In this document: positions 17,325-52,309 of the stretch, in pieces
How positions within the stretch are numbered: the first letter of the stretch is position 1
Layout of the letters: each line of letters starts with the position of its first letter
Origin: an uncultured Pseudomonadales bacterium
Lineage (GTDB): Bacteria; Patescibacteriota; Microgenomatia; UBA1400; PJMF01
Reading direction: 5' to 3'
Assembly (NCBI GenBank): GCA_964412775.1
Contig: CAYPPX010000001.1
Coordinates: 1,122 to 65,121, forward strand
Length of the DNA stretch: 64,000 nucleotides
Position numbers and translations under genes: made by a program
Notes under the pieces: generated by a model
Database searches by the model: none
Seen by the model: the letters and a program-made list of their open reading frames with translations, nothing else
Told to the model about the DNA's origin: nothing

Positions 17325-19994
17325 GTGTTCAATCACCAACCACTGAACAAATTTTCAAGGTATAATAGATGTGTGAAATTAAGTTATAAACTACTGTTAG
17401 TGTTTTCTTTGTTTTTTTTGTTAATGAGTCGAGTTTTTGAGGTTAAAGCTGCTTCTAGTGATGATTACGTCAACTATACTCGTCGTGATCCAGAAATGTA
17501 TAACTATCTACCACTCGTGATCGATGATGGTTATTCATTGGGTAATACCGGTGAACTTCAAGATATTATTACCTACCAAATGGCCTACAACCAAGGTTAC
17601 GAAGTCCAGTGTGCCAAACCAAAGTGGTGGCTTTGGGGACAAGTGCATGGTGATATTAAAGAATATTTTGAGGAATATGAAAAACCAGTTAGACTAACTT
17701 CAACTTCAGTTTATGAGGGTCAGTTTGCTGAAGGAAAAATTCCTCTCTTTCAAGGAGATGAAGACTTCAAAGATACTACTAAAATCTCTTCTTATGAGGG
17801 TTACTTTGGAGCAAAAAACCTAACCAAACAACCAGCTGAGTTAAATTCGGCCGGTGTAGCTACCACCCTTTTAACCAGAGAAGAACAATGTGTAGTTAAG
17901 TATAACAATTTGTACGAAGTCTATAACAAACTTTTCTGTGATAAATTTAAGGAAGGTTCTCCTTGTAAACTTAACCAAATTGACATTCCAGGCAGAGATT
18001 ATGGTGGCTGGATTCTTTTCGAAGCACTAAGAGATATTTTTGCCATTAAAAGTAAAACAGATCCAGACAAAAATTTCAGTTGTTATGAATTAATGCATGA
18101 GTGGTCTCCAGACATCGAAGAAGAGTTCGGCATTAGCCAATCAAAGTTTGAAAATGACATTAAGCCATTTGCTGAAGATATCAGTCTAGCCCCTCTCAAT
18201 ATGGAAGCTTTATATCGCTTGGCGTTTTTGGTTGTCTCAATTAAACAGAATGTGATGGAAGGCAACGAAGAAGTTGACCCAGCTCTTTTCCCTAGTAATG
18301 AAGATATCTTTGACTTTTTGGAAATCTCAACACCAGAACCAGTCTGGGGTGGAACTTTCGAAAGAATGCCCATTAAAAAAGAAGCTCCCATTGTGATTGG
18401 TTTCAAAGTCCCAATGACTGCTACCAACATGATCTTTTCTTTGCCTGGTTTAACTGATTCAGCCAGACTAACTTCATATCTCTTTAGTGAACCAGAAAGT
18501 ATTGCCAAACATATTGATGAAATGAAAGACCAAAGAAAAGAATACTTGGGGAATATTCTAGCTGTAAAAAAAGGCTTACCTGGCACCGATCCAGTCATCA
18601 ACTGTGGTGCTCTACCTCAATGTGTGGGTGATGATCCTAATAAAATTTTGCTTAGATCTTTAATTGACCAAATTAATGGTAGTGGTCTAGATTGTGGTGG
18701 CTTCGAAGGTTCTTATGAATTGGTATCTGAGTTGGGTTCTAGTGCTAATACTCCAGATAATACTAGAGAGCTAAGAGACCCCTACTTTTCCAAAGTCTTT
18801 ACTTCTGACGCATCCTATACTTTTGACTGGAACATTATTGTCAAAGATGAAGTGGTAAATGGCGACTTAGATGGCGATCCAATTGTAGCCAGAGCACATT
18901 TAGTTACACCTTATGGTAGTGATATGGAATACATCAACAAGGTTTTACGTCAAATGTTTACTGAAGATGAATTCAAAAAAATTGTAGAAAAAAACTGTGT
19001 TGAAGACTTTGATGGTAAGTGTGGAATTATTCCTGAAAACTTAACTTTTGTTAACACTACCGCAGAACTAAAAACCAAGCCAGATGTTTTTTCCTTTATT
19101 TACCATCAGCCACCAGGCTGTGTTGAGAAATGTCCAGAGGATGATAAATACTGTATTGAGTGCGAAAGAAAGAAAATGGCTGGAGTTGTTGTAGAGAACC
19201 CAATAGAACCAATGAGAATTCTAGGTGGCGAGCTAGGGTTTATGATTAGAAAAATTCAAGAAAATTTAAGAGATTATGGCTCAAGAGCTTGGGAATATAT
19301 TCATAACTGTAAACGTACTGAAGATTTATTCTTGGGACGATGTGAAGGTTATGATAGCGGGACTGATCCTACTGATGGTGAAGAATTAGCCTGTGAAGAA
19401 ATCAAAACTAGAACCACTAAATTACCAACTATGAATGAACTGATGAAAATGACTTGTAGTGTAGCTGGTAATGATCCGAACAATGCTCAGATGTTATGGG
19501 GCTTTTTACAAATTGAAGCCAGTCCAATGCTCAGAAAAATTAGAGAAGGAGCAAAAGAAATGAGTTGTGGTGAAATCGTCACTAATGCTTGTGGCGCTTC
19601 AGGCATTGTGGGGGTTTTAATCCCTCAATGTATCGATAAGGAAGGTTGTCCTCAAGCTGCTTATATTGCTGATGATAAAGATGACCCATGGATTCAAGAA
19701 GCGAGAAACAACCCTGATATTGCTTGCGATATCAAAACATCACTGGAATATATTCTAAGGAAAAGACTTTCAGAAAGAGGTTGGTTAGTAGAACAATACA
19801 AAGCTAAAAATGGAACAACCCCATCCACTCAACAACTTTATTATATGATGGCTGGACGTAATTATGGTGTTCCCACTGAATATTTGACAACACCTGCTTG
19901 TGCTGGCTATGAAGAAGTTCAAGGCTGTGGTGGAGCCAACTACTGTGTTTGTACTATGGATACATTCAAGTTGGATTGTGGAAATATTAAATAA
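17325..19994 (+). CDS. Large secreted Cys-rich protein (889 aa), hypothetical; candidate adhesin or effector of the adjacent pilus/T4SS-like system
   Basis: N-terminal signal/TM; >35 Cys spread along the length; no enzymatic motif recognised. Confidence 0.4.
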   Translation: MFNHQPLNKFSRYNRCVKLSYKLLLVFSLFFLLMSRVFEVKAASSDDYVNYTRRDPEMYNYLPLVIDDGYSLGNTGELQDIITYQMAYNQGYEVQCAKPKWWLWGQVHGDIKEYFEEYEKPVRLTSTSVYEGQFAEGKIPLFQGDEDFKDTTKISSYEGYFGAKNLTKQPAELNSAGVATTLLTREEQCVVKYNNLYEVYNKLFCDKFKEGSPCKLNQIDIPGRDYGGWILFEALRDIFAIKSKTDPDKNFSCYELMHEWSPDIEEEFGISQSKFENDIKPFAEDISLAPLNMEALYRLAFLVVSIKQNVMEGNEEVDPALFPSNEDIFDFLEISTPEPVWGGTFERMPIKKEAPIVIGFKVPMTATNMIFSLPGLTDSARLTSYLFSEPESIAKHIDEMKDQRKEYLGNILAVKKGLPGTDPVINCGALPQCVGDDPNKILLRSLIDQINGSGLDCGGFEGSYELVSELGSSANTPDNTRELRDPYFSKVFTSDASYTFDWNIIVKDEVVNGDLDGDPIVARAHLVTPYGSDMEYINKVLRQMFTEDEFKKIVEKNCVEDFDGKCGIIPENLTFVNTTAELKTKPDVFSFIYHQPPGCVEKCPEDDKYCIECERKKMAGVVVENPIEPMRILGGELGFMIRKIQENLRDYGSRAWEYIHNCKRTEDLFLGRCEGYDSGTDPTDGEELACEEIKTRTTKLPTMNELMKMTCSVAGNDPNNAQMLWGFLQIEASPMLRKIREGAKEMSCGEIVTNACGASGIVGVLIPQCIDKEGCPQAAYIADDKDDPWIQEARNNPDIACDIKTSLEYILRKRLSERGWLVEQYKAKNGTTPSTQQLYYMMAGRNYGVPTEYLTTPACAGYEEVQGCGGANYCVCTMDTFKLDCGNIK

Positions 19995-20010: not shown

Positions 20011-20832
20011 TTACTTTTCAGTAACAATTTCAGGCTCAATAGTAATTTTCTTTTTTCTACCTCGTTTTTTCTTGACTACTAAAGAAATTTCTGTAGCATC
20101 AACTCGCTTGGTTCTTCTCGCCCCCATTCTCAAAAGTCGAGCAACTTTTTCAAAAGTCTCAGCAGTGGTAGTAAAAGATTGCAGATAATTAGTAGTGTGT
20201 TCAATTCCCATTAACAAAGCTGTTGCCATTGGCTCATTTATTACTAACTCCAAATTGTCAAACAAATCAATAATATTTTCACTCATGCTACTAGAGCCAG
20301 ACAGATCAAACTGAGTGGTACCAATTTCTGGCTTAAAGTTATGTAAAGTCACCACATAACTATTTTGGTAAAGACTTTCATAACCAAAATATAATTGTTC
20401 CAAACTTTCTAAATCATGAACGCCCACTAAAAAAACTAAATCAATATCTGTGCCCGCATAACCAAACTCAACTGATTTTGGATCAAGTGGTTTGATACCT
20501 TTTTTGGGTTTAATTGTTAAATAGAATTTTTTACTTTCCTCAGCAATGTGGTAACTAACTTTGTCGACTGCTTGTTCATCGTAATCAAAAGAAATAACCA
20601 AGTTTTGTTTACCTAGGTTGGTTTGCAACTCTTTTAAAGCCGAGAAATAATCATCACTAATTTTTTGGGGGGCATAAAAACCAACTTCTTTACCAACCGA
20701 CACACAACCATGAAACAAACTACTTGCTACAGCTAATTGGTCAACTGTTGGTTTTGGGCCTAAAATAATCGCAATTGACTCTGCTGATTGAAAGTACTCT
20801 TTGAGTGAATTGACTTGTTCTAGTGCTATCAT
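20011..20832 (-). CDS. Hypothetical protein; start refined to the internal Met (MIALEQVN...) to avoid overlap with the divergent gene
   Basis: The ORF-track version (to 20997) overlaps the plus-strand gene by ~100 bp and adds an unlikely hydrophobic leader. The Met at 20830-20832 follows a TATACT -10-like box. A GVHDLE segment only weakly recalls DHH phosphoesterases. Confidence 0.35.
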   Translation of the reverse strand: MIALEQVNSLKEYFQSAESIAIILGPKPTVDQLAVASSLFHGCVSVGKEVGFYAPQKISDDYFSALKELQTNLGKQNLVISFDYDEQAVDKVSYHIAEESKKFYLTIKPKKGIKPLDPKSVEFGYAGTDIDLVFLVGVHDLESLEQLYFGYESLYQNSYVVTLHNFKPEIGTTQFDLSGSSSMSENIIDLFDNLELVINEPMATALLMGIEHTTNYLQSFTTTAETFEKVARLLRMGARRTKRVDATEISLVVKKKRGRKKKITIEPEIVTEK

Positions 20833-20893
20833 TATGAGTAGTATAGTACATTTTTGATTACTTTTGTAGTATTTAAAGTTTGTTTTTGGGGTT

Positions 20894-22579
20894 TTGCTTT
20901 TTAATTTCTTGACGTACAATATTAAACAAATGAGGCAAATCACTAAGCTTGCTATTTTTGCCGTTTTCCTACTACTAGGTTCTGTTGTTGTTGCCAAACC
21001 AGTTCAAGCTTTTGATTTGGTTGAATGGTTTCAAGAAACTTTTAATATTCAGAAAAACCTCGATGATTCGATTAATGCTCAAGTTAGAGCTTCAGAAGAA
21101 GGTGATGTTACTTTAACTTCTCTGGTACCCAATGTTGGTGGTGAAACTAGAAATGACCTACTTTTGGTTGCTGCTGGTGTACCTAAGGTTGAAAACAGTC
21201 CAGCACTACAAAGTATGACTGAAGAACAAAGAAAAATTGTTTATGAAAGATACGGTCGAGGCTTAATTGGTGACTCAGTTAATGCTGTAGCAATGCTTTA
21301 TACTCCTCCAGCTTCTGGTACAGTCTATGTTGCAGAACTGCTTAGATCTGCTCACATTATTCCTCAAGCCCATGCCCAAGGGTTAGGTTTTTCTGCCTTA
21401 GACCCAGTTTTAGAAACTTGGAAAGTCTTTAGAAACATTGCCTACCTATTTTTTGTAGTCGTATTTTTGGCAATAGGCTTAATGATTATGTTCCGTCAAA
21501 AAATTGGTGGCCAAACTGTGGTTACTGCTCAACAAGCTATACCAGGCATTATTGTCTCTTTAATTACCGTTACCTTCTCTTATGCTATTGCTGGATTTTT
21601 GATCGATTTAATGTACTTAATTATGTACTTAATGATTGGTTTATTTAGTCCTCAATCTGGTACAGAAATCATCAGTAAAAACTTTTTACAAATTGGTTTT
21701 GATGTAGTTACTGGGGTTAACACTAATGGGGCCTTTTCTAGTATGAACGAAGCTGTTAAAACCTTTGCTTCTTCAATCGATACTAGTGCCATTGGTGAAG
21801 TCTTGGGGTGGATTGGTGGTGTGACCATGGGCTTAATTGTTTCGATTGCTATTTTGATTGGTGTTTTCAAACTCTTTTTTGAACTACTCAAGATTTACAT
21901 TACTATTATTATTGCTATTGTGGTCAGTCCAGTTTTATTAATGATGGGAGCTATCCCAGGTAAAAGTAACTTTGGATATTGGGTTAAACTAGTCTTTGGT
22001 AACCTACTAGCTTTTCCAATGGTTCTATTTTCTTTAATTCTTTATGAGATGTTTACTAGTGGTGACCTTTCTGCCGGTGGCTTTATGCCTCCTTACTTGA
22101 TTGGTCGTGGATCTGGTAGTGTGATGATGACCTTGGTGGGAATCGGTATTATCATGATCATTCCAGAATTAATTAAAGAAATGAAAAAAGCCCTCAAAAT
22201 CGATGGTGGTATTTGGGAAACCTTGGCCTTCAAAGCTGTTGATCAAACCAAAGAAGGTCTTAGATACGGTGTACCAGGTGCCTACGTGGCTGGTGGCGCT
22301 ATTGGTGATACAGCCAAAGGTATCTGGGCTGGTAGAAAGAATCTTAAGACTATTCCTGGCAATGTTTATAGAAACGTTACTCAAAATGTTGGAGACAACC
22401 TTAGAAGAGGTAACCAGGCCGCCGCTAGTATTGAAAATGTGTTAGAAGGTAAGTTTAAAGATCCAAACAGTTGGGAGAACTTAATGCTCAGAAACCAACT
22501 AGAAGAACAAGAAAAACGTAGAAAAGAAGAAAAAGAACGACGCAGACAAAAAGTTAGAAGACCAAGACCAAACGGCTAG
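20894..22579 (+). CDS. Polytopic membrane protein, VirB6/TrbL-like candidate
   Basis: Signal peptide plus >=6 hydrophobic helices in the central region and a charged C-terminal tail (KRRKEEKERRRQKVRR); architecture and position in a VirB4-containing cluster. Confidence 0.35.
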   Translation: MLFNFLTYNIKQMRQITKLAIFAVFLLLGSVVVAKPVQAFDLVEWFQETFNIQKNLDDSINAQVRASEEGDVTLTSLVPNVGGETRNDLLLVAAGVPKVENSPALQSMTEEQRKIVYERYGRGLIGDSVNAVAMLYTPPASGTVYVAELLRSAHIIPQAHAQGLGFSALDPVLETWKVFRNIAYLFFVVVFLAIGLMIMFRQKIGGQTVVTAQQAIPGIIVSLITVTFSYAIAGFLIDLMYLIMYLMIGLFSPQSGTEIISKNFLQIGFDVVTGVNTNGAFSSMNEAVKTFASSIDTSAIGEVLGWIGGVTMGLIVSIAILIGVFKLFFELLKIYITIIIAIVVSPVLLMMGAIPGKSNFGYWVKLVFGNLLAFPMVLFSLILYEMFTSGDLSAGGFMPPYLIGRGSGSVMMTLVGIGIIMIIPELIKEMKKALKIDGGIWETLAFKAVDQTKEGLRYGVPGAYVAGGAIGDTAKGIWAGRKNLKTIPGNVYRNVTQNVGDNLRRGNQAAASIENVLEGKFKDPNSWENLMLRNQLEEQEKRRKEEKERRRQKVRRPRPNG

Positions 22580-26377: not shown

Positions 26378-28036
26378 GTGTTAACCAACCAATTTGAAAT
26401 ACCAACCTTACCATTTACTTTAACCGATTTGATTCCTAGTTTTTTAGGACAAAAACCAACTGATAGACTTGACAGCAACTTAGAGCTAGAACAAATTAAA
26501 CCAATTAATAATCCTGAACAAGATAAAACCATTATTATTCTTAACTTTATTCTTAAAGAAGTTTTGCCCATTAAAGACCGAACCAAACAAAAAGAACTTT
26601 TAGTTTATTTTTTTAAATCTATTTTGTCAGAAACTCAAAAACTTCCAATTACTCACTTGGCTTATGAAATAGTCCATAAAAATTCTGGAAAATTAGCACT
26701 TCACGATGATGTTTACTTACTTAGACCAGATTTACTCCAAATTTGTCAGGAAGCCATTGAGTCTTTGGCCATTAGTCATGTAGAAAAGGATAGATACAAC
26801 CTAGAAAAAGATCAAATTGAAAACTTATTGGCTGTTTTGGAAAGTCTTTTTAAACTAACACCACATGCCATTTTAAGTTTGTTGAGCCAACAAGAAACAA
26901 CTACTCCCAACTTAGTTGATACTAACAAAACCAAAGAAAGTTTGGAATTAACTGGCTGGCAAACCTTGCCGCCACCTAAAGCTTTTTCCTTTATCCAACC
27001 AGAAGTAAAAGAAAAAATGAAACTAGAAAAACTTACTGGAGAAATTACTATTGGGCCAAAATACTTGTATATAATGCCTCAATCAGCTGTTCATGAGGGA
27101 AACTTAAGTATTATTGTACTTGCTCAACCAGTCTTTATACCAAGTTTAAACCGATTTATTCTTCTACATGACCAACATATGTCTCCCAAAAACTGGTCAG
27201 ACCATGAGCAACTTTTCAAAAAACTAAAAGTTGAATTGCCAATAGACTTTTCCAACTTGGAGTTTGCTGAAAAAGAAAAACTGATTATGGAAAAATTAGT
27301 CAAACTACCCAAAGAATTTCAAGCCGCCACTGCTAGTGAAGCTTTTTTTAAGCTTTTTCCAGAAAAAAAATTTTTAAACCGATTAAGACAAAAAATTACC
27401 AGGCAAAAAATTAAGGGAATGGAAAAATCATTGGCAGAGTATGCTGAGTTGGTAATTGATGTTGTTGGTACTGAAGTAACCAATGACCAAAATCTTTTTT
27501 CTTCAACGGTAAATAAATTAACTAATTTCATGAACAGAGTGGTATTTGCCGGAATTTTAGACGTTAAAAAAATCTCGAGTGCTAAAAGAAATACTCTCTT
27601 TAGACATTTTAAAAAGTTCGGTGACTTAGCAGAAAGAGATTTTGCTCTTTCTCTAAAAAATATTGGTTTTTCTTCTGCAGTCAAAGCCTTTGATACTTCT
27701 CTGTTGGAATGTGTTGCTTTAAGTCCTTTATCCAGTGTTCAACAACTTGCAAAACTGAATGGTTTTTCACCCAACTCACTCACTAGAGTCGATTTAGGTA
27801 AATTTATTGGTGAAAAAAGATCTAAAGACTGGAAAATGGGTGCTTGTGTTAGATGTGGTGCTTTTAATACTTGGGTCGGAGAATGTAATTGGTGTCTAAC
27901 CTGTGAGCTAAACTATAACTCACCAAAAACCAATAGCTCAACTCAAAAAAATAATTTACCAAAAACTAGCTTACCTTCCAAAAAAACTAGCATTTTTACT
28001 GAAAACCTTGGCTCTTTTATTGCCAATTTAGTCTAA
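26378..28036 (+). CDS. Hypothetical protein (552 aa) with a C-terminal Cys4 zinc-ribbon
   Basis: GTG start with a strong SD; C-terminal CVRCGAFNTWVGECNWCLTCE motif. Confidence 0.4.
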   Translation: MLTNQFEIPTLPFTLTDLIPSFLGQKPTDRLDSNLELEQIKPINNPEQDKTIIILNFILKEVLPIKDRTKQKELLVYFFKSILSETQKLPITHLAYEIVHKNSGKLALHDDVYLLRPDLLQICQEAIESLAISHVEKDRYNLEKDQIENLLAVLESLFKLTPHAILSLLSQQETTTPNLVDTNKTKESLELTGWQTLPPPKAFSFIQPEVKEKMKLEKLTGEITIGPKYLYIMPQSAVHEGNLSIIVLAQPVFIPSLNRFILLHDQHMSPKNWSDHEQLFKKLKVELPIDFSNLEFAEKEKLIMEKLVKLPKEFQAATASEAFFKLFPEKKFLNRLRQKITRQKIKGMEKSLAEYAELVIDVVGTEVTNDQNLFSSTVNKLTNFMNRVVFAGILDVKKISSAKRNTLFRHFKKFGDLAERDFALSLKNIGFSSAVKAFDTSLLECVALSPLSSVQQLAKLNGFSPNSLTRVDLGKFIGEKRSKDWKMGACVRCGAFNTWVGECNWCLTCELNYNSPKTNSSTQKNNLPKTSLPSKKTSIFTENLGSFIANLV

Positions 28037-28084
28037 AGAAAAGCTAATGCGTTTCCATCTGGTAAAGGATATAATAGCTGATAG

Positions 28085-31000
28085 ATGACTGATCATAGCC
28101 AAGTAGCCGGTGCTGGTGTTTATACTCTAAAAAGGTTAAGGGATGGTGTTTCTTTGGATCAAGTGCTTGATTTCTTAAAAAGAATCAGCCAAACAACCTT
28201 TAGAGATGGTGAAAGAATTGATTATTCATTTGCTAGTATTTTCCAAAATGTCCAACAAAGTACTTTATTGATTAATACTAAAAATCGGCAACAAAGTATT
28301 GCTGATGGAGAAAACCCAAGTTTTTTTCTATACAAAAGTGATCTAGCTTACTTGTATTCTGATTTAATCAGAAGATTTGATAACAACTTGGAGGATTTCA
28401 AAGGTACTGAAGATTATAGCCGTCTAAAAGCTTTAAATATTTACTGTGAAAATCATGATGGTGACCTTGAAATTAGTGGAGAAAACGATGTTTATCTCAA
28501 TGGTCTACTTACCGATCTAGTCGGTCGGACAACTAGATTCATTTTGCCACTACTAGAAGACTCCAAACCAAAAGAAGCTGAAGCAGTTCCCAAAGAAACT
28601 GAAGCTAATAATGAAGATCAGCTTGACCCACAACTAGTAGCAGCCGCCCTAAATGACCGCAATAATGCTCAACCAGTTGCCCCAGACTTAGTTAATACTG
28701 GCAATGAAAATGGTTCAGTTGTTCCACCTACAGACCAACCAACCAATGATCCAATTGCCACTAAAAACTTGTTATTCAGTAAAGATTTAAGAGAACAAGC
28801 TGCTAAATTTACTGGAATCGCCATAGCTCAGCTAGAACAACAAAACGGTTTACCTCCAGGATCATTAGCTAATTCTCCAGATCTTCAAAAAGTTTTAAGT
28901 GATAAAACCATGGGTTTTTTCTTGACAACTTTGGGTGATGGCCGAGCTAAAGACTTAATTGATCCTGAAACTAGATTAACTCTAATTAGAGAATATATTT
29001 GGTTGGTTCAAAATGATTTTAGAACTACAGCCATCATCTCTAACCGATTAGAAAATCTTCAAGACTTACAACCATCTCAAACAAACCAACTAGAAGTAAC
29101 TTTGCCAGATGGAACTACTAAAACTATTTCATCAGAAAAAGCACTCAAAGAACAAGTAACCCAAGCTATTAGTAACGCTTCTGGTGCTTCAGCTTCAATC
29201 GCCGAAAAAATTATTGCTGGTATTAATGGTAATACAGAACTAAACACCATCTTTGAAAAACTAGGTGATAACCAACTTATCGAAGATCGAAATGGCTACT
29301 TAATTCAAGAAACAACCAAACTATTACAACAAGAACTTCAAAGAATTGGTGTTCAAACGGACAAAATTTCTCTGGCCGAAAAAAATGTTGTCAATGTAGT
29401 TGATGCCTGGATCCTTCAGGGTTTACCTTTAGATATTTTAAAATATGTTGATGATGGGAAATTTAAACTTATTTTTGGTGAAGAAATCCCTTATAACCCA
29501 ACTTTCCTTGAATCATTAGAAGAAGTTTGGATTGCGAGAAGATCAATTCTTGGCAAAAGGACTGGTCAGCTACTACTCCACAATGAAGCCAGGTTCGCCA
29601 CTCAAGAAGCTTTGGCTCTGTTTGATGAAAGCAAAAAACTTTTAACTAAAAAAGAAGCTAACCAAGTTTTTGAAAGAGGGATTGCTGCCCCAACAAGACA
29701 AATTTTGGTTGGTAGTAAAGGGACTGCTGTTAAAGATCCTGCAGAAATAATTGAACTAACTAATGGCAAAAAATCAGCTACTAACTCAGAAAAAAGAGAA
29801 GTTTTTCTCAAACAAGTTTGGTCAACCAAAGATACTAATGTTAAACAAGAAATTCTGATCGTTTTGGGCTATGGTGATCCCGGCAGTAAAGCCATCCAAA
29901 ACTTGGCAGAGAATGCAGATTTTTATCCAAAAGAAATTGGTCTACATGATATGGCTCCATTGCTAGGTGGAGCTGCTTTCTATGATCAAAGTCAAATAAA
30001 TAACTACCAATCAAACTACATTCCTAATCAAGGAATAATTCAAAACCCCCTAGCTAATGTTGGTCAATTTGCTCAAAAAACAAAAAATTTAACTAACAAA
30101 CTTAGAGGTGGAATTAAGGGAATTGGTTCCAGATTTAGTAAAAAAGCTGCTCAAAAAGCTGCTGATAAAGCGGCTGAAGCTGGTTTAAGCACTGTGGCCT
30201 CTACAGCTACTGGAGCTATTAACCCAGCTTTGGGCTTTTTGACTAAATTAGCCAGCACCAAAAAAGGTCGTCGGGCCTTACTAATTGGAGGAGCTGTTGG
30301 AGTTGGTTCACTTGTTGTACCATTAACCACGCTTGGAGGTCAAATTGGGGCAGCTCTTGGTAGTCTTGTTGGAGGAATTTTTGGTGGCCCTGGTGGAGCA
30401 GTCTTGGGTGGAATTAGTGGAAGCTGGACAGGTTATGGCATCCAAAAGTGGTTCGGAGGATTATTTTCAAAAAGCCCTAGCAGTAACTTAATTAACCCTT
30501 TAACCAGTCAGGCAACCGCTTCCCCACTGGCCCAATCAGCTCTAAATTCAGCAACAACCACCACAGCCACTCAAGCAGCAGCCCTTAATACTGCTTCAAC
30601 CACTTTTGTTGGTCAAACCATCACCCATGTTGCTGGCCAAGCAGTTCTAGGGACGGTGGGCCTTATCACTGCTTCAGAATTAATGTTTCAATCAACAGTG
30701 CTTGGTGCTTTGACAGCGAACTTTCCAGTTGTTGAACCACTCGGTGCCTTTTCTATTGATGGAGTTGACGGCAAGGTTTCTGAGTTTGTTTCAATCGAAA
30801 AAAGAGCTTTTATTGCTGGCTGTCCAGAAAACAAATGTGAAAGTCCTTCTTTCCCAATTAAAGTTGAATATACTGTCACCATTGCTCCCAAGGGTAACTA
30901 TACAATTCAAATTCTAGACGCTACTGATACTTTGAAAGTTAATCATAGTAAAAAAGCTTGGGAAGAAAAAGGTAAAACTCCTCCTACAATTCCAGAAAGA

Positions 31001-31663
31001 ATTAAAAAATTAGCTGACTTTCCAGAGTTATATGAAGAAATTATAATTGAACCTGGAGATTCAGTTACGCTTGTTTATTCTGAGTCACTTGACGAAAAAT
31101 ACAATGATGCTTCTATTACTAATAGATTTGAGCTCAAAGTTTTTGCCAAAGATCCAGCAACTGGTAAAGAAGGAACAGATACGGCCATTACTGGAGAGAT
31201 TGTCTATATTGGTGATTATTCTCAAGGAGAAGGTTGCTGGCCAACTAGTGGCACCATGCTCCAGCTACCATTTAATCAGGGCCCAGATTCAACCCACAGT
31301 CGCTGGGATGCTTTTGATATCGTTAATGTTGAAGGTACCCCAATTTATACTCCATTTGCTGGAAAAGCTTGTCCAGGAACCAGAGATGCCTCAATCTATG
31401 GTATTCATGTAACGCTACAATCAGACAAAGGCACTTTCCAGTTTTCCCATATGCACGCGACCAACGGCCTTGATAATGGGTGTAAAGATCTTCAACCAGG
31501 AGATGTAGTAGGCTACATGGGCACGACTGGTATGGGTGGAGTACACTTGGATTGGGCTAAAATTGGTCGTGGTTCTGCTCCATCAGATTTGGCCCCCATG
31601 ATGCCTGATGGTTTAAGCATTAAACCAGGAGACCCAGTAAGGAGTTGCTATGATGGTGGCTAA
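28085..31663 (+). CDS. Giant protein (1192 aa) with a central glycine-zipper membrane segment and a C-terminal M23 (LytM-type) metallopeptidase domain; candidate T4SS-associated cell-wall hydrolase
   Basis: Gly-rich hydrophobic stretch (GGAVGVGSLVVPLTTLGGQIGAALGSLVGGIFGGPGG), Ser/Thr/Ala-rich linker, then C-terminal GTPIYTPFAGK ... FSHMHAT (HxH) ... DW pattern of M23 peptidases. Confidence 0.55.
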   Translation: MTDHSQVAGAGVYTLKRLRDGVSLDQVLDFLKRISQTTFRDGERIDYSFASIFQNVQQSTLLINTKNRQQSIADGENPSFFLYKSDLAYLYSDLIRRFDNNLEDFKGTEDYSRLKALNIYCENHDGDLEISGENDVYLNGLLTDLVGRTTRFILPLLEDSKPKEAEAVPKETEANNEDQLDPQLVAAALNDRNNAQPVAPDLVNTGNENGSVVPPTDQPTNDPIATKNLLFSKDLREQAAKFTGIAIAQLEQQNGLPPGSLANSPDLQKVLSDKTMGFFLTTLGDGRAKDLIDPETRLTLIREYIWLVQNDFRTTAIISNRLENLQDLQPSQTNQLEVTLPDGTTKTISSEKALKEQVTQAISNASGASASIAEKIIAGINGNTELNTIFEKLGDNQLIEDRNGYLIQETTKLLQQELQRIGVQTDKISLAEKNVVNVVDAWILQGLPLDILKYVDDGKFKLIFGEEIPYNPTFLESLEEVWIARRSILGKRTGQLLLHNEARFATQEALALFDESKKLLTKKEANQVFERGIAAPTRQILVGSKGTAVKDPAEIIELTNGKKSATNSEKREVFLKQVWSTKDTNVKQEILIVLGYGDPGSKAIQNLAENADFYPKEIGLHDMAPLLGGAAFYDQSQINNYQSNYIPNQGIIQNPLANVGQFAQKTKNLTNKLRGGIKGIGSRFSKKAAQKAADKAAEAGLSTVASTATGAINPALGFLTKLASTKKGRRALLIGGAVGVGSLVVPLTTLGGQIGAALGSLVGGIFGGPGGAVLGGISGSWTGYGIQKWFGGLFSKSPSSNLINPLTSQATASPLAQSALNSATTTTATQAAALNTASTTFVGQTITHVAGQAVLGTVGLITASELMFQSTVLGALTANFPVVEPLGAFSIDGVDGKVSEFVSIEKRAFIAGCPENKCESPSFPIKVEYTVTIAPKGNYTIQILDATDTLKVNHSKKAWEEKGKTPPTIPERIKKLADFPELYEEIIIEPGDSVTLVYSESLDEKYNDASITNRFELKVFAKDPATGKEGTDTAITGEIVYIGDYSQGEGCWPTSGTMLQLPFNQGPDSTHSRWDAFDIVNVEGTPIYTPFAGKACPGTRDASIYGIHVTLQSDKGTFQFSHMHATNGLDNGCKDLQPGDVVGYMGTTGMGGVHLDWAKIGRGSAPSDLAPMMPDGLSIKPGDPVRSCYDGG

Positions 31664-32639
31664 TAAGAAAAAAGAATTTGCTTGGCTTTTATATTTAGGA
31701 ATTTTTGTATTCGTTTCATTAGTAATAGCCATCTTATTCTGGATCATCACTCCCAGAGAAACAGTTATTCAAAAAACTGACTTTATTACTACCAATAAAG
31801 ACCAACAAAAAACTAACTTTTCTGGTATTGCCTTTGTTGGCACTCCCATTGAGACTCCCCAAAAACTGCCTATTCTAGCTATTAAAACAGAACATGATGC
31901 TGCTGACACTATAAAAAATAGTTTAATCGATCAATATAAACTTATAAAACACCCCAATTTAAGTGGTCTTTGGCTAAGCGACTTATACTCACTTTCATAT
32001 AATTCTCTAGATAAAGCTTATATCTTCTTTGATAAAACATATCGTCCAGAAGATGCTAACTTATACTTAAATAGTGTTAATAAAGCCATTAGTGTTTCTA
32101 CAGATTTTGTTAAGAGGCTATTCCCAGAGTTAACAATCGAAGTTGATAAAAATAATTTAGTTTATTTAGAAGGTCTGGTAGAGATGCATCCAGGTGAAAA
32201 AAACCATGCTAACTCAGTCATGATTCCATTTAACTATATGTATCAAGGTGTTCCTTTATTCGTTGATAAAAACCGAGGCAACCTTTTAGAGTTAATTGTT
32301 AATGCTAGAGATGAAATTAAAAAAATAACTTTTAAAGAAGATATTATTAGTTTTATCCCTACCGAAAAAACCATTTCAATTATTAGCCTAACTGAAGCGA
32401 TCGAAAATATTAATCAAAGCGAGGCTTTATTACTTAACTCTTATAGTGAAGATGGTTTACCCTACTCAATTAGTGACATTGCTTATGGAGATCTAGAAAC
32501 CGTTAAACTTGAATACCGAGCTGATCTAGATACTAACATTGCTTATCCCTTCTACCACTTCTACGGTAACTTAGTAAATAATAACAACAAACAATTTAAG
32601 GCAGAGATCATTACTCCGGCCGTAAAAGTTGTTGAGTAG
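31650..32639 (+). CDS. Bitopic membrane protein (N-terminal TM plus extracytoplasmic domain); VirB8/TcpC-like position (speculative)
   Basis: Start overlaps the upstream stop by 14 nt (coupling); single N-terminal TM FAWLLYLGIFVFVSLVIAILFWII; no recognised motif. Confidence 0.3.
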   Translation: MMVANKKKEFAWLLYLGIFVFVSLVIAILFWIITPRETVIQKTDFITTNKDQQKTNFSGIAFVGTPIETPQKLPILAIKTEHDAADTIKNSLIDQYKLIKHPNLSGLWLSDLYSLSYNSLDKAYIFFDKTYRPEDANLYLNSVNKAISVSTDFVKRLFPELTIEVDKNNLVYLEGLVEMHPGEKNHANSVMIPFNYMYQGVPLFVDKNRGNLLELIVNARDEIKKITFKEDIISFIPTEKTISIISLTEAIENINQSEALLLNSYSEDGLPYSISDIAYGDLETVKLEYRADLDTNIAYPFYHFYGNLVNNNNKQFKAEIITPAVKVVE

Positions 32640-32679
32640 GTCTAGCAACACGTTTCTATACACGCTAAGATAGTAATGA

Positions 32680-33732
32680 ATGCGTGAACATCCAATCCCA
32701 CAAGACGTTGTGGGTTACAAATTCCATATTGTTGGTAACATGACCTTAAAGCAGTTTGCCGAGGTCGCAATTGGTGTGGTTATTGGTGTAATTCTTTACA
32801 ATACAAACTTAGTTGATCTGGTTAAATGGCCATTAATTATTTTGTCTGCTGGTATTGGTGTTTTAGTCGCATTTGTACCAATTGAAGAAAGACCACTGGA
32901 TCACTGGATTACTACTTTTTTCAAAAGAATTTATAACCCAACTAAGTTTTACTGGAAAAAAGAAACTGAGATTCCATTTGCTTTTATGCACGTCAAACGA
33001 GAAAAAACTAAAGAAGAGGAAGACTTTGAGATTGATCTTACTCCTGCCAGAAGACAAAGAATCAAAGAATATCTAAGTTCTGTAGGTGAAAAAAAGGCAA
33101 TCGATCCATTGGATACAGAAGAACAACAAAGAATGACTAGTATTCTTGAGGAGTATAGTAAAGTTGAAGTCAAAAATATTACTGCCACACCTCAACAAAT
33201 TAAGCCTAACCTTACCACTAAAGTCAGAAACCTAGCTAAAAAATCAACAATTTCTACCGAAAATTCAGAAAAAATTATTTTTCAACAACAACAAAAAACA
33301 AACCAACAACTTAAGCAAGAAGATCAACAAAATCAACAAGGTTTAACCACAGCTCCTCAGCTCACCACGCCTGCAGTAGCTAATGAAGAGCTTAAAATAG
33401 ACAAACAAGCCTTTACTTTGCCAGATGAAGCTGTTGCAACCAACAAAGAACTTCCTTTTCCACAACAACCTACCACACCCAACACCTTGGTGGGGATGGT
33501 GCTAACTCCAGAGAATAAGTTGGTTGATCAAGCAACAGTACAAATAAAAAATAACAATGGTCAAGTGATTTACGCACTAAAAACGAACTTGTTGGGACAA
33601 TTTTCTCTTAGTTCTGCTCTGCCCAATGGTACTTATGTTTTAACTACTCAAAAAACTGGTTTTAACTTTAATGATCAAACAATTACACTAAGTGGCAAAA
33701 TTGTTTCACCACTAGAAATTAGATCTGCCTAG
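32680..33732 (+). CDS. Membrane protein with an N-terminal two-helix hairpin (VirB3/PrgI-like candidate) and a C-terminal carboxypeptidase-regulatory-like beta-sandwich
   Basis: Two adjacent TM helices in the first 70 aa (pattern of VirB3/PrgI preceding VirB4 in Gram-positive-type T4SS); C-terminal GMVLTPENKLVDQATVQIKNNNGQ...NGTYVLTTQKTGF resembles the CarbopepD_reg fold. Confidence 0.3.
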   Translation: MREHPIPQDVVGYKFHIVGNMTLKQFAEVAIGVVIGVILYNTNLVDLVKWPLIILSAGIGVLVAFVPIEERPLDHWITTFFKRIYNPTKFYWKKETEIPFAFMHVKREKTKEEEDFEIDLTPARRQRIKEYLSSVGEKKAIDPLDTEEQQRMTSILEEYSKVEVKNITATPQQIKPNLTTKVRNLAKKSTISTENSEKIIFQQQQKTNQQLKQEDQQNQQGLTTAPQLTTPAVANEELKIDKQAFTLPDEAVATNKELPFPQQPTTPNTLVGMVLTPENKLVDQATVQIKNNNGQVIYALKTNLLGQFSLSSALPNGTYVLTTQKTGFNFNDQTITLSGKIVSPLEIRSA

Positions 33733-33782
33733 GATTTTCTCATTGCGATTAGGGCTTAACTTCTAGTACCATAGAGGAAGGT

Positions 33783-34931
33783 ATGCCTGACGTTAATGAA
33801 ATTTCTTCTACCACTCAAAAATTTTTGGATATTTTTGATATTACTAATGATGTGGTTGTCTTAAAAGATGGCACTATCTCTTTAATTATGGTCATCAGTG
33901 CCATGAACTTTGGATTGCTAGCTGAACAAGAACAAGATGCAGTCATTTATGCTTATGCTGCTTTACTCAACTCTCTAAACTTCCCAATCCAAATTATTAT
34001 TAGTTCAAAAACCAAAGATGCTACAGCCTACTTGAGATTATTAGATGAACAAGCAGAAAAAGCATCAACTCAAGAGAAAGAAGACTTAATCAAGAGATAT
34101 CAAACTTTTGTCGGTCAACTAATCAGAGAAAGAAATGTTCTTGATAAAAAGTTTTATGTTTCAATTCCAGCTTCACCAGCAGAAGTTGGCATGATTACTC
34201 CTCAATCAGTTTTACCGGGCAATAGTGAAACCAAACTAACTAGAGACCAAAAAACTGCAGTCATTGAAAAAGGACTGGGGGTTTTAGAACCAAGAAGAGA
34301 TCATTTAATTGCTCAATTTAACAGAATTGGTCTTTACGCTAGACAACTCCATACCCAAGAGATTATTGAGATTTTCTATAATAACTATAATCCAGAGGCT
34401 TATGAAGGCCAACAAATTACTGATAGCAGTAACTATACCACTATGGTGGTTCAAGCCAAAACAGCTCCAGATTTAAGTTCTTTAAAAAGCTTAACTGAAG
34501 CAAATACAGCTAGCCAAGACAATCCAACTACCTTGGCTGAATTGCCACCTGCAGGAGTAGCTGAAATTAGTGAATCAGCAGTGGTACCTAGAGAACTACC
34601 AGAAAATAATTCTGGAATAGTGATAAACCAACCGGCTAGTCAACAAGCTCAAACACCTGTTAATGAACCCAAAATTGAACCAACAGTTACTCAGCCTCAA
34701 CCGACTCAACTTCCAAGTAAGCCTTTACCAAAACCAGCCCAACAAACTGTTTTTCAAGCAAATAAACCAGTTTTAGACACCACTGATCAACAACCACCAA
34801 TGAACCAACCTCTAGCTCAACCAAGTATCCAGAGTCAACCACAACTAACTTTAGAAAAAACAATTAGTGAAGTACCAATAAATAATCCTCAACCTACTGA
34901 CAAACCATTACCACCAGTAGCTGAGCTTTAA
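33783..34931 (+). CDS. Hypothetical protein with a Pro/Gln-rich C-terminal tail, just upstream of the VirB4-like ATPase
   Basis: ORF; low-complexity PQ-rich C-terminus; no motif. Confidence 0.3.
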   Translation: MPDVNEISSTTQKFLDIFDITNDVVVLKDGTISLIMVISAMNFGLLAEQEQDAVIYAYAALLNSLNFPIQIIISSKTKDATAYLRLLDEQAEKASTQEKEDLIKRYQTFVGQLIRERNVLDKKFYVSIPASPAEVGMITPQSVLPGNSETKLTRDQKTAVIEKGLGVLEPRRDHLIAQFNRIGLYARQLHTQEIIEIFYNNYNPEAYEGQQITDSSNYTTMVVQAKTAPDLSSLKSLTEANTASQDNPTTLAELPPAGVAEISESAVVPRELPENNSGIVINQPASQQAQTPVNEPKIEPTVTQPQPTQLPSKPLPKPAQQTVFQANKPVLDTTDQQPPMNQPLAQPSIQSQPQLTLEKTISEVPINNPQPTDKPLPPVAEL

Positions 34932-34960
34932 ATAAATTTGATGGAGTAAAATAAAAAACA

Positions 34961-37081
34961 ATGCCTTTACAACTGCCTTTTTTTAAACAAAAGCAAAACG
35001 ATCAGCCAGCAAAATTAACTCCTGAGCAAAAACAAATGGAAAAAGTGAGAGAATTTTCTCAGGGTTTAGTCACTATTCAAGACATTATTGCTCCAGAAGC
35101 GATCGAGGTTGATTTTACTTATCAACAAATTAACTCAACTTATACGCGTACATTATTTGTGGCTGGTTATCCAAGAACTGTCCCAGCTAACTGGCTATCT
35201 CCTTTAATCAACTTTCCTAATCAAGCCAATATCGCCATGTTTATTTATCCAGTAGATTCTGCTGAAGTTTTGGATAATTTGAAAAGGAAAATTACAGAAA
35301 TGGAGGCTGAAATTCAATCAGATATTAGATCTGGTAAGATCAGTAACATTAACACCGAAATTAAGCTCAGTGACGCTCGAACAATCCGTGAACAGTTGGC
35401 AGCTGGTTCAGAAAGATTTTTCCAATTTGGTTTATATGTCACGCTTACTGCTCCAAGCATGGAGTATTTAGATAAAGTCACTAAAAACATTCAATCAATG
35501 CTTGGGTCTTTGTTAATTGTTTCTAAAAAAGCCACTTTACAAATGGACGAGGGTTTTAAAACTACCTTACCAATGGGTAAAGATAAATTAATGATTACTA
35601 GAAACATGGATACTACTTCTCTGGCAACAACTTTTCCTTTTACTTCTTCAGAACTTACCATGGAAACAGGTATCCTCTATGGTATTAATGAACACAATGA
35701 TTCATTGGTTATTTTTGATCGTTTTAAGATGGAAAACGCCAACATGGTTATTTTTGCCAAATCTGGTGCTGGTAAATCTTACACGGTGAAACTTGAGATT
35801 ATTCGTCAGCTAATGTTTGATGCTGAAGTAATTGTACTTGATCCTGAACACGAGTATGAAGAATTGGCAAAAAAAGTTGGTGGTGAATACATTAACTTTA
35901 CTTTTGGTTCCAAAACTAAAATCAACCCATTTGACCTTTCTGCGATGTACGAAGAAGGTGAAAATGAATTAGGCCAAAAAATCTTAACTTTGCATGGTTT
36001 ATTAAAAGTAATGCTAGGAGACATGACCTCTCAGCAAGAAGCTCTGCTTGACCGAGCTTTGATTGCTGCTTATAAAGCTAAGGGTATTACACCAGACCCG
36101 GTCACCCAAACCAATGAACCACCTCTGATGGAAGATTTATACAAGGCTTTAATTGGTATGGAAAATGAAGAAGCTAATGATGTGGCAGCTAGACTAGAAA
36201 AATTCATTACGGGTTCTTTTAGAGGTATTTTTGATAAACCATCCAACTTAGATATCACCAATCCTTTCACAGTTTTTTCGGTTAAAGAAATGGAAGAAGA
36301 ACTTCGACCAATTGCGATGTTTATTATTCTTGATTTTATCTGGACAAGAGTAAAAAAAGACCTTAAACGTAGAATTTTGGTCATTGATGAGGCTTGGTAC
36401 TTTATGAAACATAAAGACAGTGCTTCATTTATTCATTCAATGGTAAAACGTGCTAGAAAATACTATTTAGGCATTACTACCATTACTCAAGATGTTGAAG
36501 ATTTTATCCATAATGATTACGGTAAAGCGATTGTTAGTAATGCTTCAATTCAATTTTTAATGAAGCAATCAACTGCTTCCATTCCAGTCTTAGCAGAAAC
36601 TTTTTACCTTTCAGAGGGAGAAAGACAATTATTGGTTTCATCTGATGTCGGTGAGGGTATCTTTTTTGCTGGCCAAAACCACGTCGCTCTAAGAGTGGTG
36701 GCTAGTGACGAAGAACATGAAGTTATTACCACCAACCCAGAAGAAATTCTTAAAAAGAAAGAAGAAGAACAAAGACTTAAGTTAGAAAAGATGGCTGAAT
36801 TAGAAAAAGCTAAAGAAAAAAAACCTAAATTTTCTTTTGGCGTACCAACTAGCCAAAAAAACAAACCAGCTACTGCAACTCTTTCACAGCCAGGCATAGT
36901 CCCGGAACAAACGCAGAAAACTGATAGTCTTGAAAAAGAACCAACTGAAGCTCCTAATGCTAAAGCGACTCAATCTTCAGTAGATCAAGTAAAACCAGTT
37001 ACTAAACCAGTACAACAAAATGACCGTCCAGACTATGCTGGTTACTACACGATTGATGACTATTCCCCACCAGAAAGCTAG
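34961..37081 (+). CDS. VirB4/TrbE/CagE-family type IV secretion ATPase
   Basis: Walker A FAKSGAGKSYTV, Walker B ILVIDEAWYFM, overall length and the VirB4-typical C-terminal NTPase region. Confidence 0.8.
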   Translation: MPLQLPFFKQKQNDQPAKLTPEQKQMEKVREFSQGLVTIQDIIAPEAIEVDFTYQQINSTYTRTLFVAGYPRTVPANWLSPLINFPNQANIAMFIYPVDSAEVLDNLKRKITEMEAEIQSDIRSGKISNINTEIKLSDARTIREQLAAGSERFFQFGLYVTLTAPSMEYLDKVTKNIQSMLGSLLIVSKKATLQMDEGFKTTLPMGKDKLMITRNMDTTSLATTFPFTSSELTMETGILYGINEHNDSLVIFDRFKMENANMVIFAKSGAGKSYTVKLEIIRQLMFDAEVIVLDPEHEYEELAKKVGGEYINFTFGSKTKINPFDLSAMYEEGENELGQKILTLHGLLKVMLGDMTSQQEALLDRALIAAYKAKGITPDPVTQTNEPPLMEDLYKALIGMENEEANDVAARLEKFITGSFRGIFDKPSNLDITNPFTVFSVKEMEEELRPIAMFIILDFIWTRVKKDLKRRILVIDEAWYFMKHKDSASFIHSMVKRARKYYLGITTITQDVEDFIHNDYGKAIVSNASIQFLMKQSTASIPVLAETFYLSEGERQLLVSSDVGEGIFFAGQNHVALRVVASDEEHEVITTNPEEILKKKEEEQRLKLEKMAELEKAKEKKPKFSFGVPTSQKNKPATATLSQPGIVPEQTQKTDSLEKEPTEAPNAKATQSSVDQVKPVTKPVQQNDRPDYAGYYTIDDYSPPES

Positions 37082-51519: not shown

Positions 51520-51933
51520 TTAATTTGGATCCGGAACGTTAATTTGTAAGACACTAAAGGTATCACCAAAGAAAATTTCACCAATAAAGCCAATAATTGC
51601 ATATGAACCAACCAAAACAACTAGACCAATTACGGCTTGAGTAATTCTGTTTCTAGCATTTTCGACCTTGCCTTTATCGCCACCACTACCAATCCATTCA
51701 ATTGCTCCCCAAACAAAGAAGATCAAAACTGTAATAGCACCAATACTAATTAAGGCATTCCAAAAGAAAATAAAGTATTCAGCAAAAGTACTGCCAGAAG
51801 CAGCTTCTTTTGAACCACTACCATATTTACCACTAACAACGGGGTTAGTTATTTCAGCTTTGACTGGGCTAGCCAAAAAAAGTCCTAATAGAAAAGTGTT
51901 GATGGCTGTTGATATTTTGGTTAGTTTTTTCAT
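51520..51933 (-). CDS. Pilin-like protein paralog (start refined to the internal Met MKKLTKIS)
   Basis: Core AIEWIGSGGDKGKVENARNRITQAVIGLVVLVGS; the longer ORF-track start would overlap the upstream paralog. Confidence 0.5.
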   Translation of the reverse strand: MKKLTKISTAINTFLLGLFLASPVKAEITNPVVSGKYGSGSKEAASGSTFAEYFIFFWNALISIGAITVLIFFVWGAIEWIGSGGDKGKVENARNRITQAVIGLVVLVGSYAIIGFIGEIFFGDTFSVLQINVPDPN

Positions 51934-51937
51934 ATTT

Positions 51938-52309
51938 TTAAATAGAGTCAACAATTGTTTGAATTTGTTCTGCTGGATTAAGTAAGTCAATACCAATGAA
52001 GCTACCCAGTAAACCAAGAATAGCGTAAGAAGCCACAATAATAACCAAACCAATGGCTCCGTTCATCATTCTAGTTCTGGCTTTTTCGGTTTTACCTTTA
52101 TCACCACCACTAGTAATCCATTCAAAGGCACCAAGCACAAAATAGATAACAAAAAAAACAGTTCCAATAGTGGTCATGAAACCAATGATATTTGAAATGA
52201 AAAGTTCTAGGTTTGACAAAGCCCCACCAGCAGTATTAGAGCCTTTACTGTAAGCTTCGGTAGGTGGTTTGAATCCACCAATGTCGATTGTTTTTTGTGC
52301 TAATTGCAT
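51938..52309 (-). CDS. Pilin-like protein paralog
   Basis: Core AFEWITSGGDKGKTEKARTRMMNGAIGLVIIVAS. Confidence 0.55.
   Translation of the reverse strand: MQLAQKTIDIGGFKPPTEAYSKGSNTAGGALSNLELFISNIIGFMTTIGTVFFVIYFVLGAFEWITSGGDKGKTEKARTRMMNGAIGLVIIVASYAILGLLGSFIGIDLLNPAEQIQTIVDSI

Follow-up and report, generated by a model that had tools for sequence, protein, structure and literature searches.

A candidate membrane-anchored M23 wall hydrolase encoded in the chromosomal type IV secretion locus of a Candidatus Pacebacteria lineage

The 64,000-nucleotide stretch of patescibacterial DNA analysed here (positions 1,122 to 65,121 of contig CAYPPX010000001.1, hereafter the window; G+C ~35%) encodes a 1192-residue protein that is probably the dedicated, membrane-anchored wall hydrolase of the chromosomal, origin-proximal type IV secretion system (T4SS) of a Candidatus Pacebacteria bacterium, that is, a functional analogue of VirB1 with a PrgK-like topology; a probability of about 0.62 is given to this reading. 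Membrane-anchored peptidoglycan hydrolases are already known as components of monoderm-type T4SSs; new here are a lineage-restricted, predicted cytoplasmic domain of ~730 residues and an M23 cassette that exists in two recombining forms, one of them with Asp substituted at the zinc site, in a family described nowhere in the literature searched. An earlier reading of the DNA from its letters and translated open reading frames only (ORFs; the sequence-only reading) had put the gene forward as the best candidate for a channel-associated wall hydrolase. That proposal is upheld by the T4SS operon, the membrane anchor, the M23 fold and the failure to detect any other hydrolase domain in the operon, and is qualified by a Pfam score below the cut-off and by an HxD motif where HxH was expected. 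The ORF it had claimed, 28085-31663 with 1192 codons, matches the sequence exactly, and the features it had quoted (GTPIYTPFAGK, FSHMHAT, the Gly-rich stretch and the S/T/A linker) were all located in the protein.

Eleven full-length homologs, 37-98% identical to the window protein, all conserve its length and its N-terminus (M-[ST]-D...), and together with it they form the 12-sequence alignment used throughout (A1); the nearest (98% identity) is a hypothetical protein in a Candidatus Pacebacteria metagenome-assembled genome, which places the window in the genome of an ultra-small CPR/Patescibacteria bacterium and not of a classical Gram-positive. A scan of 185,579 species-representative genomes with two peptide patterns, which gives a lower bound, found at least four loci of the family.

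The assignment of the C-terminus to the M23/LytM metallopeptidases, as first proposed, is confirmed by several independent comparisons. In a search of the PDB with the A1 profile, every match was to a solved M23 enzyme and fell within the C-terminal ~120 positions of the profile, the matches being 9gy1 (E=7.4e-15), DipM, NMB0315, Csd3, ShyA, zoocin A, lysostaphin and LytM. Alignment by hhalign to the catalytic domain of lysostaphin gives 95% probability (E=3.5e-8); this comparison is a lead, cross-checked by the search of the A1 profile against the PDB. An AlphaFold2 (AF2) model of residues 880-1192 has a predicted local distance difference test score (pLDDT) of 86 and a predicted template modelling score of 0.78, and Foldseek matches it with probability 1.00 to Csd3, ShyA, DipM, EnvC, LytM and lysostaphin (template modelling score relative to target 0.6-0.76 for single-domain targets). 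The phage metallo-endopeptidase family phrog_7767 is matched by 11 of the 12 members (best E=1.9e-14). The Pfam check proposed earlier gave a mixed outcome: residues 1074-1158 of the window protein do match PF01551 (Peptidase_M23) with E=5e-5, but the 23.8 bits of this single sequence fall under the gathering score of 28.7. Because a precomputed PF01551 match exists for 10 of the 11 full-length homologs, the family passes this profile and its divergent window member does not.

Six residues of the M23 domain (H1071, D1075, D1078, H1108, H1122 and H1154) are invariant across the 12 aligned members, and further relatives also carry the active-site motifs, as judged by eye or by pattern. In the hhalign pairing H1071-x3-D1075, the HxxxD motif of M23 enzymes, falls on the zinc ligands H32-x3-D36 of lysostaphin; H1122, the second catalytic His of the 'AHL' strand, falls on catalytic H82, H1154 on H113, and position 1156 on the third ligand H115. 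The first motif is atypical in that three residues are inserted after H1071-x3-D1075, the signature of the family being H-x3-D-A-x-D-I. At the third ligand the window protein has Asp in place of His (H1154-L-D1156), so the 'DW' that had been quoted as an M23 signature is actually the second-His position of HxH (H1154-L-D1156-W) with one zinc ligand replaced; the zinc ligands expected by the sequence-only reading are retained by the family as a set, but in the window protein D1156 stands for His. Asp at 1156 is shared by homologs P0001, P0002 and P0009 and by the protein of locus L009 (L009:10001-13585); HLH is found in every other member examined, 17 of these bearing the H-x3-D-A-x-D-I signature.

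Exactly the sequences with HLD also carry R1124->H, V1074->W and F1157->W together with 'NG' and 'PFNQ' insertions, and H1124 sits two residues past catalytic H1122 on the same predicted β-strand. The complete loss of HxxxD and HxH that marks degenerate LytM domains is not seen; only one of the five residues is changed, and its substitute is a potential metal ligand. HLD is regarded as a conserved alternative form of the active site and not as decay. Catalytic activity of the HLD form appears plausible because most relatives keep HLH and because the HLD form is itself under purifying selection.

The evidence for that selection, and for exchange of the M23 domain as a unit, comes from comparisons domain by domain. 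P0009 and P0010 are 85% identical in the N-domain, 66% in the transmembrane (TM) region and 68% in the β-sandwich that precedes the M23 domain, but only 46% in M23; between P0009 and the window protein the corresponding values are 43%, 44%, 70% and 74%. The same pattern recurs for L009 and P0020 (N-domain 65-72%, TM region 89%, β-sandwich 68%, M23 52%) when set against L009 and the window protein (36-39%, 44%, 72% and 83%). Since two independent pairs of related backbones, P0009/P0010 and L009/P0020, thus bear alternative M23 types, HLD in one member and HLH in the other, the best explanation of the discordance is recombination whose breakpoint lies near residue ~1046. When the M23 domain of the window protein is compared with its L009 counterpart, the proportion of synonymous differences is 0.78, which is saturated, and that of nonsynonymous differences is 0.12; the ratio of nonsynonymous to synonymous substitution (dN/dS) is 0.14 in the β-sandwich and 0.44 in the N-domain. 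The HLD-type domain is accordingly old and under purifying selection, which argues against a decaying pseudo-enzyme, though it does not by itself prove catalysis.

Upstream of the M23 domain, the protein is built from parts of very different character (Table 1). The earlier remarks that the N-terminal ~700 residues carry no motifs and that the size of this domain is unusual both hold: residues 1 to ~700 have no match in Pfam, NCBIfam or PDB sequence searches, the AF2 model of the N-domain is weak and mostly helical (pLDDT 59) and finds no fold match in the PDB by Foldseek, and an exhaustive search of 1.84 billion cluster representatives with the N-domain profile returned 14 proteins only, leaving this ~730-residue domain without detectable relatives outside the family. 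Ten of these 14 are ~1190-1360 residues long, and because the full-length ones examined all terminate in the same M23 module, the N-domain appears confined to this architecture.

A membrane anchor had been claimed, and hydropathy supports it with three hydrophobic segments, conserved in 12 of 12 sequences. Their insertion energies (dG, approximate values on a second hydrophobicity scale) lie far below the values of at least 9.8 found in the soluble parts; that of the third segment (H3) is 5.6 in the window protein and 2.5-5.8 across homologs, and Q852, A853, F880 and P881 of H3 are invariant in the 12-sequence alignment. The Gly-zipper segment has sub-threshold Pfam matches to Gly-zipper_Omp and DUF1269. 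Residues 701-740, before TM1, are rich in Lys and Arg with no acidic residue, and juxtamembrane helices are predicted at 659-673 and 681-699 with low confidence (pLDDT <50). The Gly-rich stretch and the S/T/A linker (residues 801-850 are 56% Ser, Thr and Ala with zero charged residues) had been taken to separate the two halves of the protein; both are present, but hydrophobic segment 844-884 and the β-sandwich at 885-1045 had been overlooked. Only ~15 residues lie between H3 and the β-sandwich, which has an invariant C913-x4-C918 (CPENKC loop) and resembles β-sandwiches of the ApaG/TRAP/Spo0M type in Foldseek. Six of the seven Cys residues fall in the C-terminal module, all six invariant, and three disulfides are predicted there (C913-C918; C1051, C1096, C1133, C1188). 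Because of the basic stretch before TM1, the acidic stretch after H3, the three conserved segments and this distribution of Cys, a three-pass topology with the N-terminus inside and the C-terminus outside would fit; TM1 as sole membrane span would still leave the M23 module outside.

In a run of six co-directional genes, separated by gaps of 48, -14, 40, 50 and 29 nt, the M23 gene is second; it lies three genes upstream of virB4, after which come dnaA and dnaN. This order, including the stop/start overlap between the M23 gene and the 329-aa ORF downstream, recurs in every homolog locus examined, L001-L006 among them, even those of the 37%-identical P0011 and the more distant P0015, and among these loci the family occurs at the T4SS position only. 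Translational coupling of the M23 gene and the 329-aa ORF is likely. Within the co-directional run (26378-37081) and the remaining large ORFs as far back as 15623, no further peptidoglycan-hydrolase domain was detected, and no relaxase domain was seen among window ORFs of at least 150 residues. Published Patescibacteria T4SSs are chromosomal, origin-proximal, relaxase-less and related to the monoderm mating-pair-formation class MPF-FATA (PMC12102498), a picture that the window locus matches; it is not a conjugative element. In place of the label 'Gram-positive T4SS' used before, the correct designation is a Patescibacteria chromosomal T4SS related to monoderm MPF-FATA (PMC12102498). According to the same 2025 survey, VirB1 homologues are rarely found near virB4 in Patescibacteria, where other hydrolases may serve, and VirB6 is scarce in Microgenomatia (PMC12102498).

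PrgK, a VirB1-type protein (DELTA class) from the T4SS of Enterococcus faecalis pCF10, is the closest comparator. The VirB1 analogues of monoderms are anchored in the membrane. PrgK, encoded like the window protein in a monoderm-type T4SS cluster, has an intracellular N-domain that AF2 also models poorly, followed by one TM helix and, outside the cell, a LytM/M23 domain (PMC11323569, PMC12857230). The two differ in the size of the N-domain (~250 residues in PrgK vs ~730) and in the anchor (one TM helix vs three hydrophobic segments including a Gly-zipper). The LytM domain of PrgK lacks HxxxD and HxH and binds no metal, its activity coming from MUR (and CHAP) domains, whereas M23 is the sole hydrolase domain of the window protein and keeps 4-5 of 5 active-site residues; the window protein has no SLT, MUR or CHAP domain and, unlike PrgK, has the β-sandwich. 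Outside the LytM fold no sequence similarity between the two was detected. TraG (pIP501), TrsG (pGO1), CD419 (CTn2) and Orf14 (Tn916) are likewise extracellular peptidoglycan hydrolases with a membrane anchor; their genes lie near virB4 and they are required for wall passage (PMC12857230, PMC12102498), but they use SLT, CHAP or NlpC/P60 domains; because no Pfam or NCBIfam match to SLT, CHAP or NlpC/P60 was found in the window protein, it is considered a functional analogue of VirB1 and not a homologue.

A mechanism may be sketched on this basis. From the order and spacing of the genes, the M23 gene would be co-expressed with those for the PrgI/VirB3-like, TrsD-like and VirB4 proteins. The ~730-residue N-domain would stay inside, held by the basic TKKGRR, while TM1, the Gly-zipper and H3 would place the C-terminal module outside; there the Cys-stabilised β-sandwich would present an M23 zinc endopeptidase that, judging from the chemistry of its family, would cut peptide stems or cross-links of peptidoglycan beside the machine and so open a passage for the channel and a VirB2-like pilus. 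The wall acted upon may be the cell's own or that of a host. The cytoplasmic domain might also act as a tether to the VirB4/TrsD energy centre, limiting hydrolysis to the assembly site; this speculative step was suggested by a review according to which no VirB10-like relay is known from monoderm systems (PMC12857230).

Several observations weigh against an active, T4SS-dedicated hydrolase. Besides the sub-threshold Pfam score and the loss of the canonical HxH, the first motif can be aligned in two registers, since hhalign takes D1075 as the ligand and phmmer and MAFFT place the invariant D1078 at the canonical Asp; segments 2 and 3 are just moderately hydrophobic; the N-domain, with neither sequence nor fold relatives and a weak model, offers no clue to its role; and the LytM domain of PrgK, the comparator itself, is inactive (PMC11323569). 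Furthermore, the homologs all come from one narrow lineage in which gene order may be conserved generally, and because of this, synteny alone argues only weakly for functional linkage.

In a first alternative, the HLD-type M23 domain would be inactive, a peptidoglycan-binding, regulatory or adhesin module like the LytM domains of PrgK, EnvC, NlpD and DipM, and the protein a structural or scaffolding subunit of the T4SS. The substitution of a zinc-ligand His by D1156 speaks for this explanation, as does the presence of DipM and EnvC among the best sequence and fold matches, and there is precedent in the degenerate, regulatory LytM domain of PrgK and in inactive VirB1 homologues proposed to be adhesins (PMC11323569, PMC12857230); the purifying selection described above would be expected equally of a binding module. 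However, EnvC, NlpD and DipM, which share the LytM fold and are among the top matches, lack the zinc motifs altogether and act as activators of amidases or transglycosylases, whereas the window family keeps the motifs, the one departure being Asp for His in a single subclade. The HLD form retains four of its five catalytic or ligand residues, Asp is itself able to bind metal, most family members have the fully canonical set, and the exchange of His for Asp is paired with R1124->H on the strand of the catalytic His, so that the site looks remodelled and not lost. Neither the protein nor the operon was found to contain another hydrolase domain that could be the regulated partner, and an inactive domain is considered unlikely, although it is the best placed of the alternatives.

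A second alternative retains the enzyme but directs it at the wall of a host, making the protein a host-penetration subunit of the T4SS whose exchangeable M23 cassette is tuned to host peptidoglycan types. In its favour, two independent backbone pairs have an M23 domain whose phylogeny conflicts with that of the rest of the protein, a pattern typical of host-interaction modules, although cassette exchange could equally mirror changes in the wall chemistry of the symbiont itself. Patescibacteria T4SSs are mostly without relaxases, and the T4SS of Saccharibacteria is essential for epibiotic growth (PMC10633639, PMC12102498). The enzyme would, however, be tethered to its own cell's membrane, and the ~15 residues between H3 and the β-sandwich imply a short reach. 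Also in favour, the architecture is analogous to that of M23-bearing phage tape-measure, tail-lysin and ejection proteins. Such phage proteins are long and helical, have Gly-rich hydrophobic segments, cross the envelope and digest peptidoglycan locally. Examples (the internal protein of the cyanophage A4 pre-ejectosome, 9k2v; Gp16, 9m7n; phrog_1047; phrog_167) have ~900-1250 residues with M23 in the C-terminal part, and M23-bearing phage ejection proteins are among the PDB matches. Residues 629-801 (29969-30487), comprising the basic helix, TM1 and the Gly-zipper, match phrog_1047, 'tail associated lysin', with E=3.7e-6 (5e-7 for the isolated region) and, weakly, tape-measure phrog_167; residues 354-813 match a tape-measure family, and many members match tape-measure PHROGs. 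When the M23 domain was removed from four divergent members, the phage match persisted for the window protein (E=5e-7) and for that of L001 (E=0.03) but was gone for L002 and L003. Homology of the helix/TM/Gly-zipper region to phage tape-measure or tail-lysin proteins was rejected because matches present in only two of four members tested are inconsistent; the likeness is kept as an architectural analogy, the context of the window being a chromosomal T4SS beside dnaA and dnaN and not a prophage. Action on a host wall is, on balance, doubtful.

An extended form of this idea is held to be about equally improbable. The protein would here be more than an accessory that clears the wall: a trans-envelope bridging and penetration subunit, special to this CPR T4SS, whose N-domain couples to the VirB4/TrsD motor as a VirB10-like relay, with an M23 cassette matched to host peptidoglycan acting as a determinant of host range; its further elements, a His/Asp/Asp or relocated-His metal site in the HLD cassette and functional analogy to phage tape-measure and tail-lysin proteins, are no less tentative.

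The best Foldseek matches of the C-terminal module, ShyA of V. cholerae, Csd3 of H. pylori and NMB0315 of Neisseria, align over ~300 columns and also have a β-rich domain before M23, which in ShyA blocks the active site while the enzyme is in its latent, closed state (closed 6ue4, open 6u2a); the superposition gives a root-mean-square deviation of 19-22 Å, so that the arrangement of domains is different, and these three proteins are soluble and periplasmic, with canonical HxxxD/HxH and no link to a T4SS. That the window protein is likewise a housekeeping endopeptidase of growth or division (MepM/ShyA/EnvC-like) merely lying beside T4SS genes near the replication origin is very improbable: these fold matches and the synteny of the entire origin region within a narrow clade are what such an enzyme would show, but the gene stands in a closely spaced co-directional run that leads, by way of a conserved stop/start overlap, into PrgI, TrsD-like and VirB4 genes, the family is found at the T4SS position only, the predicted cytoplasmic domain of 730 residues is foreign to the matched housekeeping enzymes, and separate genes nearby code for other wall enzymes (SpoIID, VanW).

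Table 1. Features of the M23 protein and of neighbouring genes in the window
Feature	Residues	Coordinates	Strand	Remarks
561-aa protein, 7 strongly hydrophobic segments, signal-like N-terminus		20894..22579	+	position conserved in homolog loci
552-aa protein, first of the co-directional run		26378..28036	+	GTG start; same position in L001, L003
M23 protein ORF		28085..31663	+	ATG start; 1192 aa plus stop
N-terminal α/β subdomain	12-160	28118..28564	+	AF2 block at pLDDT 71-88; fold without PDB match
Acidic disordered linker	161-225	28565..28759	+	pLDDT 26-35; D+E 18%; variable, gapped in A1
Conserved, mostly α-helical domain	226-660	28760..30064	+	invariant motifs LPxGxL, GFF, QNDF, IFG, EAxFA
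Basic juxtamembrane helix region	661-730	30065..30274	+	ends TKKGRR; predicted cytoplasmic side
TM1 / hydrophobic segment 1	731-750	30275..30334	+	Kyte-Doolittle 1.93; lowest dG sum 2.6; in all 12
Glycine-zipper segment, probable TM2	751-795	30335..30469	+	31% Gly; dG 5.4
S/T/A-rich uncharged linker	796-843	30470..30613	+	length varies among homologs
Hydrophobic segment 3 (H3), probable TM3	844-884	30614..30736	+	Kyte-Doolittle 1.2-1.35; acidic stretch after
β-sandwich domain (~160 aa)	885-1045	30737..31219	+	AF2 strands, pLDDT ~90
M23/LytM metallopeptidase domain	1046-1192	31220..31660	+
M23 key residue	H1071	31295-31297	+
M23 key residue	D1075	31307-31309	+
M23 key residue	D1078	31316-31318	+
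M23 key residue	H1122	31448-31450	+
M23 key residue	H1124	31454-31456	+
M23 key residue	H1154	31544-31546	+
M23 key residue	D1156	31550-31552	+
329-aa bitopic protein		31650..32639	+	ATG overlaps M23 stop by 14 nt; overlap also in L001-L004
PrgI (VirB3-like) protein with C-terminal CarboxypepD_reg domain		32680..33732	+
382-aa protein		33783..34931	+	position of TraC-like (PF26593) genes in L001-L006
VirB4-like ATPase		34961..37081	+	P-loop_TraG E=1.8e-25; CagE_TrbE_VirB

Among the neighbours, the 552-aa protein upstream of the M23 gene has no family match; its C-terminus is Cys-rich with a CxxC...CxxC pattern (CVRCGAFNTWVGECNWCLTC) that resembles a zinc ribbon. A role of the 329-aa protein as a VirB8/PrgL analogue is without sequence support (no VirB8 or Pfam match), its sole match being a weak one to the competence pilin ComGC (E=0.004, residues ~242-299); it could still be a VirB8-like partner. 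The 382-aa protein of the window itself has no Pfam match and is probably the TrsD-like component (for TrsD context see PMC12102498). Further upstream, the 561-aa protein also lacks a Pfam match and, as a polytopic protein of the same locus, is a candidate VirB6-like subunit; the notion that the M23 protein is the missing VirB6 was rejected, as this separate seven-TM ORF fits better. The annotated TTG start of the 561-aa protein overlaps a 328-aa minus-strand ORF (20011-20997) by ~100 nt, and one of the two starts may be wrong.

The upstream part of the locus combines large, secreted, Cys-rich proteins with seven-TM and T4SS_pilin-domain proteins. An 889-aa protein (17325-19994, plus strand) has a signal-like N-terminal segment and 29 Cys but no Pfam or PHROG match, and its position is kept in homolog loci (~870-895-aa genes in L001 and L003). 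A 417-aa protein with 12 Cys (15623-16876, plus strand) has a T4SS_pilin (PF18895) domain at its C-terminus only (residues 351-404) and is unusually long for a VirB2-like pilin; a second PF18895 protein is encoded at 51520-52053 on the minus strand, ~20 kb downstream of the M23 gene. In L002, too, pilin genes lie upstream of the locus. The T4SS region is flanked by a gene for a VanW plus PG_binding_4 protein (11294-13222, plus strand), and a SpoIID-domain protein with an N-terminal coiled coil is encoded upstream on the opposite strand (13760-15520, minus strand). A VirD4-like coupling protein (TrwB_AAD_bind, TraG-D_C; 3050-5227, plus strand) lies ~23 kb upstream of the M23 gene and ~30 kb from virB4, adjoining a sortase (1101-1949) and a RadA-like ATPase (5392-6789).

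The cumulative GC skew reaches its minimum at ~36-38 kb and the G+C content falls to ~31% from 38 kb onward, which fits a replication origin at dnaA/dnaN; the T4SS operon, on the plus strand and directly abutting this origin, is therefore transcribed toward it. In a promoter and terminator scan, sites were no more frequent than in shuffled sequence. As for shorter proteins consisting of the C-terminal module, a free-standing enzyme was rejected, because P0012 and P0014 are cut short where their contigs end and P0015 stems from a frameshift or a split gene call. In L005 (L005:745-4363) the gene of this distant relative is divided into ORFs of 816 and 399 aa (the latter P0015) that overlap by 32 nt, reflecting either an assembly frameshift or a genuine separation of the cytoplasmic/TM part from the extracellular module.

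Patescibacteria account for a large fraction of bacterial diversity. Their chromosomal T4SS, which epibiotic growth requires in the single lineage tested (PMC10633639), has an incomplete list of parts, and the family, read as a T4SS wall hydrolase, is a concrete candidate for the missing wall hydrolase of one such lineage. The analysis offers residues for mutation, namely H1071, D1075/D1078, H1122, H1124, H1154 and D1156, and points to a natural experiment in which two anciently diverged, recombining forms of an active site appear on otherwise similar backbones. The contrast between HLD and HLH could reveal if an M23 enzyme works with Asp as third ligand, and if its specificity tracks the cell's own wall or that of the host; the interest of the family would rise sharply if the cassette targets host walls or if the N-domain couples the motor to the exterior.

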